A model generated the notes under the pieces. The model saw only the letters and a program-made list of their open reading frames with translations, was not told where the DNA came from and ran no database searches. Below are positions 39,008 through 39,379 of a stretch of DNA of 64,000 bases, in pieces. Position 1 is the stretch's first letter. Each line of letters begins with the position of its first letter. Source of the stretch: a phage. The position numbers and the translations under genes were made by a program. The stretch lies in the NCBI GenBank assembly GCA_014740375.1, contig GCA_014740375.1_3041.1; one strand, given 5' to 3'.

Positions 39008-39379
39008 TCAATACGGTTTAGCATCAAATTTTCTCTCAATTTCAGGCGTGAAATATAATTCTTTACCGCGTTTGGAAAAGCGACCAATAATATGATAATT
39101 ATTCTCATCAAACGTGATATTACCAATATCCATAGCTTTCAACCAAATATCGATATTTCTATCCAGCTTTATGTCAAAATTCCAATACGGAGAACTATTA
39201 CCGAAAATACTGCAAGCGGATTCAGTGAAACAACTGCTATAAATCTTGTCTTTAGGAACTACTAATTGATAGACGCCTTTAATAAACTGAGGACCCTGCC
39301 ATTTAGGTTGTTTCGCGTCTTTTTCTAATAGAATAGGGTAATAATTAAAATTCATATTTTCCACCCCGCGGTATTTCAT
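39008..39379 (-). CDS. Hypothetical protein inserted between frd and td (123 aa)
   Basis: Start overlaps frd stop (ATGA); no domain I recognise; T4 has frd overlapping td directly at this junction. Confidence 0.55.

Follow-up and report, generated by a model that had tools for sequence, protein, structure and literature searches.

The frd-td Interval and Its Features

The window, i.e., the whole stretch of 64,000 nucleotides of phage DNA analysed here (GenBank assembly GCA_014740375.1, contig GCA_014740375.1_3041.1), carries on its minus strand the genes frd, a 123-codon open reading frame (ORF), td, nrdA.2, nrdA.1 and nrdA, in this order. Hereafter, X refers to the ORF at 39008-39379 and to the 115-aa gene that it holds in the frd-td slot, Y to its tandem paralogue, and Z to a 68-aa member of phrog_9550. 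In its longest form, X runs from 39379 to 39008 on the minus strand (372 nt, 123 codons plus stop) and is present as described in the original prediction, in which the strand had not been given. Upstream lies frd (dihydrofolate reductase; 39376..39957, minus strand), whose stop codon (39378-39376) is overlapped by the first ATG of X (39379-39377) as ATGA at 39379-39376, as had been claimed. The 45-bp spacer reported before td is likewise found (38963..39007, minus strand), reaching from the TGA stop of X to the start of td (thymidylate synthase; 38102..38962, minus strand), an intronless gene of 286 aa. The T4 arrangement with which this layout was compared, an overlap of the frd stop with the td start, is borne out by the T4 coordinates (frd 145109-145690, td from 145112). 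A 9-bp direct repeat, TAAATGAAA, identified in the alignment with T4, occurs twice on the minus strand of this interval: its left copy (39374..39382) lies at the frd stop and first ATG of X, and its right copy (38957..38965) at the td start, 417 bp from the left one.

Two further observations concern the flanking genes. While td is unbroken in the window, as in T2, the gene holds a group I intron with I-TevI in T4, T6, JK08 and fPS-90. Since X and the I-TevI cleavage region are about 0.6 kb apart, it may be speculated that homing from a T4-type donor could co-convert the slot. On the other side of frd, an 81-aa ORF (39957-40202, minus strand) abuts the frd start. An ORF matched to it by size and position is annotated in RB14 (RB14ncORF233c), T2, T6 and JK08, while T4 has just a 71-bp gap from frd.1 to frd at this position; the 81-aa ORF looks like another gene of this block, in addition to X, that is missing from T4.

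The Start Codon of X

The longer, 123-aa frame is open in the window and RB14 and closed in T2 and T6. When T2, T6, DalCa and KFS-EC3 are read from the first ATG, the sequence is ATG AAA TAA, with a stop at codon 3, and for this reason the 123-aa start was rejected as the conserved one. By contrast with that frame, the second ATG (39355-39353) corresponds to the methionine from which the homologues of other genera align, and in Mosigvirus SF the frd stop overlaps this second ATG directly. Comparison of the sequences therefore points to the second ATG, at 39355, as the conserved start of X, yielding a coding sequence at 39008..39355 (minus strand; 115 aa plus the TGA stop; MNFNYY...KPY) that belongs to phrog_1928. 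A Shine-Dalgarno-like sequence, GGGGTGGA (39367-39360, minus strand; GG(T/C)GGA in relatives), is situated 6 nt upstream of the 39355 start, and translation of X would proceed from this ribosome-binding site of its own to give the 115-aa product. The 24 nt at 39356..39379 (minus strand) would then represent a leader or, optionally, an N-terminal extension of eight codons (MKYRGVEN). As the ATG of the 123-aa frame shares the sequence context of the T4 td start, a longer product may also arise in the window and in RB14.

Occurrence of X in T-Even Phages

When 601 bp spanning this interval served as the query, nucleotide matches were obtained in 539 phage records, 359 of which cover the full query at 95-99% identity. 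By tblastn, the X protein is at least 90% identical in about 363 records; each of the 589 records hit contains just one matching place, and all X loci inspected adjoin frd. Both T2 (L009 1111-1458) and T6 (L010 1112-1459) have X in the frd-td interval, and the window, T2, T6, RB14 and KFS-EC3 all encode one and the same 115-aa protein. The best match is RB14, where the ORF is annotated as "RB32ORF229c hypothetical protein, flanked by 9 bp repeat". X is thus already known as an annotated hypothetical gene in hundreds of T4-like genomes, and the ORF, "unrecognised" in the original prediction, has borne the name RB32ORF229c in RB14 and RB51. No paper on X was found in literature searches with RB32ORF229c, its accessions, phrog_1928 and the frd-td slot, and none turned up among the genome-level papers returned for T-even frd and thymidylate synthase or in a search on T-even anti-defence. 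In one genome-level paper, frd and td appear solely as auxiliary metabolism genes (Petrov 2010), while the terms dihydrofolate, thymidylate, Tequatrovirus, Tevenvirinae and nucleotide metabolism are all absent from the text of the HIDEN-SEQ preprint.

Some records carry misleading names for X or Z (H213 (pSe_SNUABM_01), H179, H211, H223 and H253), such as "glucose-1-phosphate adenylyltransferase", a second "dihydrofolate reductase" or "flagellar biosynthesis protein", none of which is backed by profile searches. The RB14 record (NC_012638, L001 3080-3160) also shows two extra A's right before the frd stop, and frd is annotated there as a 615-bp gene overlapping X; the two extra A's may be a homopolymer sequencing error.

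The presence of X in these reference phages bears directly on the notion of an insertion into a conserved junction. T2 and T6 hold the identical 115-aa product at the same position, which is the very finding named beforehand as refuting the original prediction, and the gene cannot be regarded as new to this junction. Alignment of the frd-td interval with T4, T2, T6 and RB14, as proposed together with the original prediction, upheld the absence of X from T4 and did not uphold an insertion in this DNA, X being present in the other three phages.

X, Y, Z or an Empty Slot

The junction considered normal in the original prediction, with frd directly overlapping td, is found in a minority of genomes: of about 540 related records, just 32 match a 44-nt probe for the T4-type junction over its entire length, these being T4 strains and a few isolates (G28, FN, SG1, G2133 and HY03 among them). 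In about 135 records, those of JK08, fPS-90, pSs-1 and JS98 among them, the slot is filled by Z, whose ends overlap both neighbours: the frd stop through ATGA and the td start through TAATG. Given that records with X (about 363), with Z (about 135) or without either gene (32) together account for approximately the 539 records, the three states look mutually exclusive within Tequatrovirus. Z was located in JK08 (L018 2622-2828) and fPS-90 (L019 2622-2828), and at L003 2673-2879 and L006 2648-2854. Its carriers in the slot include Tequatrovirus and Dhakavirus, Z being 69-79% identical across genera, and copies with 40-43% identity exist in unrelated Phapecoctavirus phages.

Beyond Tequatrovirus, homologues of X with 31-44% identity immediately follow frd, in most cases with an overlap, in phages of six further genera: Kanagawavirus (CIP9), Jiaodavirus (KP17), Gelderlandvirus (Melville), Marfavirus (P545), Moonvirus (CF1) and Winklervirus (Kc304). 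Three metagenomic contigs also show X between frd and td, with the order gp32 - frd.3 - ... - DHFR - X - (Y) - td - nrdA. In comparisons of the window with the six genera, identity amounts to 31-44% for X, 45-53% for Frd and 69-77% for Td; the divergence of X is only slightly above that of Frd, which fits vertical inheritance.

In many Tevenvirinae genera X is immediately followed by Y, an ORF of 114-124 aa (L003 2317-2676, L005 2309-2656, L006 2290-2643, L007 2287-2634, L008 2314-2688, L015 3308-3658 and L017 3344-3688); the genera with this arrangement include Kanagawa-, Gelderland-, Marfa-, Moon- and Winklervirus. X and Y are related to each other with an hhalign probability of 99.5% (E 3e-23), and the phrog_1928 profile recognises both (E 1.1e-35 for X and 9e-36 for Y). 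Y has been lost from Tequatrovirus, which keeps X alone, while in CIP9 and P545 X, Y and Z coexist. The frd-td slot is, in summary, polymorphic, with X, X-Y, X-Y-Z, Z or nothing as its content, and what had been taken for an inserted accessory gene is the commoner allele, with homologues in the same slot of the six other genera.

Coding Constraint

Comparison of X with its copies in T2, T6, KFS-EC3 and RB14 reveals 2-14 synonymous and 0 nonsynonymous differences, and comparison with the Mosigvirus copies 31-34 synonymous and 9 nonsynonymous ones (dN/dS 0.035-0.042). These dN/dS values of 0-0.04 identify X as a constrained protein-coding gene and not a chance frame. A chance, unexpressed ORF could be suspected from the lack of any Pfam domain and from the fact that transcription of X is only inferred; yet such selection across up to 34 synonymous differences, a reading frame kept in at least eight genera and a confidently predicted fold (see below) make this idea barely credible.

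Origin of the T4 Junction

Alignment of T4 (NC_000866) with the window reveals flanks that are 96-98% identical and a clean 417-bp indel, bounded by TAAATGAAA, of which T4 keeps a single copy and lacks the 417 bp holding X and the 45-bp spacer. Over its first 50 nt, T4 td is 96-98% identical to that of X-type phages and 84% identical to that of Z-type phages, which relates the T4 junction to the X-type allele. Derivation of the T4 junction from a Z-type allele was rejected on these grounds, and the repeat there comprises just 5 bp.

Deletion between the two TAAATGAAA copies would join the frd stop to the td start and create the ATGA overlap of T4. Because homologues occupy the same slot in six genera and the direct junction is rare, the most parsimonious reading of the sequences is that the presence of X is the old state and the T4 junction a derived one, probably produced by microhomology deletion. 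Running counter to a deletion is that the Tequatrovirus allele has its own leader, ribosome-binding site and spacer, whereas spacer and leader are missing from the Mosigvirus copies. Together with a vestigial ATG AAA TAA beside the left TAAATGAAA copy (T2, T6, DalCa and KFS-EC3), these elements are compatible with a microhomology-mediated re-insertion into a T4-like junction.

Extended to its full form, the insertion idea of the original prediction postulates that the overlapping, T4-like junction was ancestral in Tequatrovirus and received a self-contained accessory cassette, consisting of a leader, a ribosome-binding site, the ORF and a spacer with a promoter, whereby 9 bp of the target were duplicated. 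It would account for the direct repeat exactly at the indel ends, already remarked by the RB14 annotators, for the td-like start ATG AAA TA(A/C) that persists as a vestige after the left copy, and for Mosigvirus copies devoid of the leader and the 45-bp spacer; the horizontal exchange seen in SF also speaks for it. Nevertheless, a 9-bp repeat equally marks a microhomology deletion, neither a transposase nor an integrase nor a homing endonuclease exists in or beside the ORF, and no copies occur elsewhere in the genome by tblastn. Moreover, orthologues in the same slot of at least six other genera, with a divergence comparable to that of Frd, and the rarity of the direct junction (32 records) render such an insertion rather improbable.

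X has also been mobile in a different sense. In Mosigvirus SF (L013 117-1048), X is 94% identical to that of the window, while Frd is only 59% identical, and the X-td spacer measures 15 bp. This discrepancy indicates that X moved between lineages by recombination, and suggests that an X-td segment was passed between genera. With deletion as the preferred explanation, the often-cited frd/td ATGA overlap of T4 is a minority state that probably arose by microhomology deletion of X.

The Spacer and the Expression of X

The 45-bp spacer is nearly invariant in Tequatrovirus copies and missing in the Mosigvirus phages SF and PTK (L014). It contains TTTAGCTTCA (38995-39004), which resembles a MotA box, TATAAT (38979-38984) and AAGGT (38968-38972), a putative ribosome-binding site of td. 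In T4 middle promoters, the MotA box, with the consensus (a/t)(a/t)(a/t)TGCTT(t/c)A, precedes the -10 element TAnnnT by about 12 bp. Judged by its letters, TTTAGCTTCA departs from this consensus by one core mismatch, TATAAT being 10 bp and TAATTT 12 bp away. A promoter in the spacer had been considered possible; a sigma-70-like TTGATT-18-TATTAT with 9 of 12 matching positions is indeed present there, but it is no better than shuffled sequence can offer, given that the promoter scan returned 8 sites versus 10.1 +/- 3.4 in shuffles, the chance level for an AT-rich region. A sequence scan detected no terminator-like site between frd and td, and the Rfam search of 38800-39600 returned two sub-threshold matches to eukaryotic families, which were dismissed. 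In T4, frd transcription peaks early (PMC13478754), which points to early co-transcription of X with frd; X would be transcribed along with the frd, td and nrd genes early in infection.

Protein Family and Predicted Fold

The product of X is a mildly basic protein of 13.6 kDa, in a family whose pI values are mostly 7.7-9.4. Residues 12-119 of X align with profile positions 2-125/126 of phrog_1928 (E 1.1e-35), and the invariant residues Q16, W19, G27, G91, K95 and G97 lie in the motifs QKKW, HGIY and GRFxKxG. Pfam yields no match to X at E<=10, from which it follows that X has no GIY-YIG or HNH domain, in agreement with the original prediction. The same library gave scattered chance hits only for 25 family members and nothing informative on function for the neighbouring Y and Z genes. 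PADLOC left X unmatched, and sequence-profile searches of the PDB with 3 and with 29 sequences returned chance hits only (E >=0.23). The statement that no motif can be recognised therefore stands in so far as Pfam, PADLOC and PDB profiles supply no relative, to which membership of phrog_1928, a family whose function is unassigned, must now be added.

The family is small. An exhaustive HMMER search of 1.84 billion representatives recovered only 20 clusters, all of 95-116 aa. Word-indexed searches with the X profile found X-type proteins only (103-119 aa), and the one with a merged X+Y profile added unnamed Y-type hypotheticals of 113-128 aa; none of the matches from the word-indexed searches has a Pfam domain or an informative name. 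All family matches of traceable source, in named records and in contigs, derive from T4-like phages, and phrog_1928 appears, by these searches, to be confined to such phages.

AlphaFold2 was run with an alignment of 25 sequences, after a model obtained with a 3-sequence alignment (pLDDT 62) had been discarded. The resulting model is confident (pLDDT 90.3, pTM 0.84) and beta-rich, with strands at 6-12, 27-34, 38-40, 48-50 and 62-64, a helix at 68-77, and strands at 80-82, 86-96 and 99-104. The order of its elements, b1-b2-b3...-helix-b4-b5, resembles that of an OB fold. None of the solved structures matches the model significantly; the weak structural matches are, in both lists, mostly OB folds (HIN, Teb1, S1, RecO, SSB, PriB, RPA and Stn1/Ten1), and BFVD yielded nothing beyond uncharacterised proteins from phages of the T4 type that infect Pectobacterium, Serratia, Erwinia and Aeromonas. 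The slot is thus home to an orphan family under strong constraint, whose fold is predicted with confidence and has no solved relative.

The profile and fold searches also bear on whether X could be a free-standing homing endonuclease or what is left of such a gene, comparable to the seg and mob genes found between conserved T4 genes. Its location between two conserved genes, its presence or absence among close relatives and the distance of about 0.6 kb to the I-TevI site would all suit such an element. Nonetheless, X is matched at E<=10 by none of the nuclease profiles, GIY-YIG and HNH included, and the 115-aa model has no nuclease fold match; the earlier opinion that the ORF is "not an obvious homing endonuclease" is contradicted by neither type of search. 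Strong purifying selection on the whole protein also excludes a decaying remnant, and the chances of an endonuclease origin can be rated as minimal.

Possible Functions of X

All in all, X is probably nothing more unusual than a small gene that phages of the T-even type inherit vertically and keep in a fixed slot. As T4 lacks it, laboratory hosts do not make X indispensable, which the term accessory gene had implied. Profile searches found no catalytic signature in the X product, which would most likely bind nucleic acid, a nucleotide or a protein partner without being an enzyme, this being the weakest part of the proposal. In view of the predicted model, an OB-like, non-enzymatic binder may be regarded as a reasonable lead, and the best guess is a small, basic, early, non-enzymatic binding protein.

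The main functional rival to an OB-like binder is a fast-evolving early counter-defence or host-takeover protein that neutralises a host immunity or metabolic protein. X has several of the expected attributes: it is small, dispensable and presumably early; it has been lost, or swapped for Z, in different lineages; it forms with Y a diversified tandem pair of paralogues; it evolves faster than Td; and its family, with 20 clusters among 1.84 billion representatives, is phage-only. However, arms-race genes are usually neither invariant nor fixed in place, and X keeps its position across genera and shows no nonsynonymous change relative to T2, T6 and KFS-EC3. PADLOC, a library of defence rather than anti-defence proteins, did not match it, and X is absent from the literature searched. 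A role in counter-defence is, on balance, a possibility to be kept in mind rather than the expected outcome.

A further, rather unlikely proposal is that X and Y represent an undescribed fold working directly with dihydrofolate reductase and thymidylate synthase; they might then be an adaptor or regulator of the deoxynucleotide-synthesis complex, or a binder of a folate or nucleotide ligand. If true, this partnership would explain why at least eight genera have retained X in the frd-td slot. In its favour are the lack of a solved fold relative, the fixed position and the contact of X, by overlap or adjacency, with both enzyme genes. On the other hand, T4 has no X, identical Frd proteins occur with X, Z or nothing, and an X at 94% identity is paired in SF with a Frd at only 59%.

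The X family is a tractable target for deletion and complementation in T2, T6 or T4. X itself matters little for discovery; the minority status of the T4 overlap and the polymorphism of the slot may be of modest interest for phage specialists.

Comparison with Known Systems

The OB-fold nucleic-acid-binding domains (SSB, PriB, RPA, S1, HIN and Teb1) offer a possible structural parallel to X, suggested by the order of elements and the weak matches described above. Z, the phrog_9550 member, takes the same slot and the same ATGA overlap with frd, but is unrelated in sequence. A true relationship exists with Y, which shares the motifs LLxxDxxQKKW, HGxY and GRFxKxG with X and differs from it by about 15 extra residues after QKKW. 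The hypothetical proteins of T2 (XYW65485) and T6 (BBF63653) are the same gene in the same slot, with 115 aa that are 100% identical, and differ in that the upstream in-frame ATG is closed. RB32ORF229c (RB14ORF231 in RB14, YP_002854567; also present in RB51) lies in the same slot, shares with the window the open upstream ATG, and encodes a product 100% identical to X.
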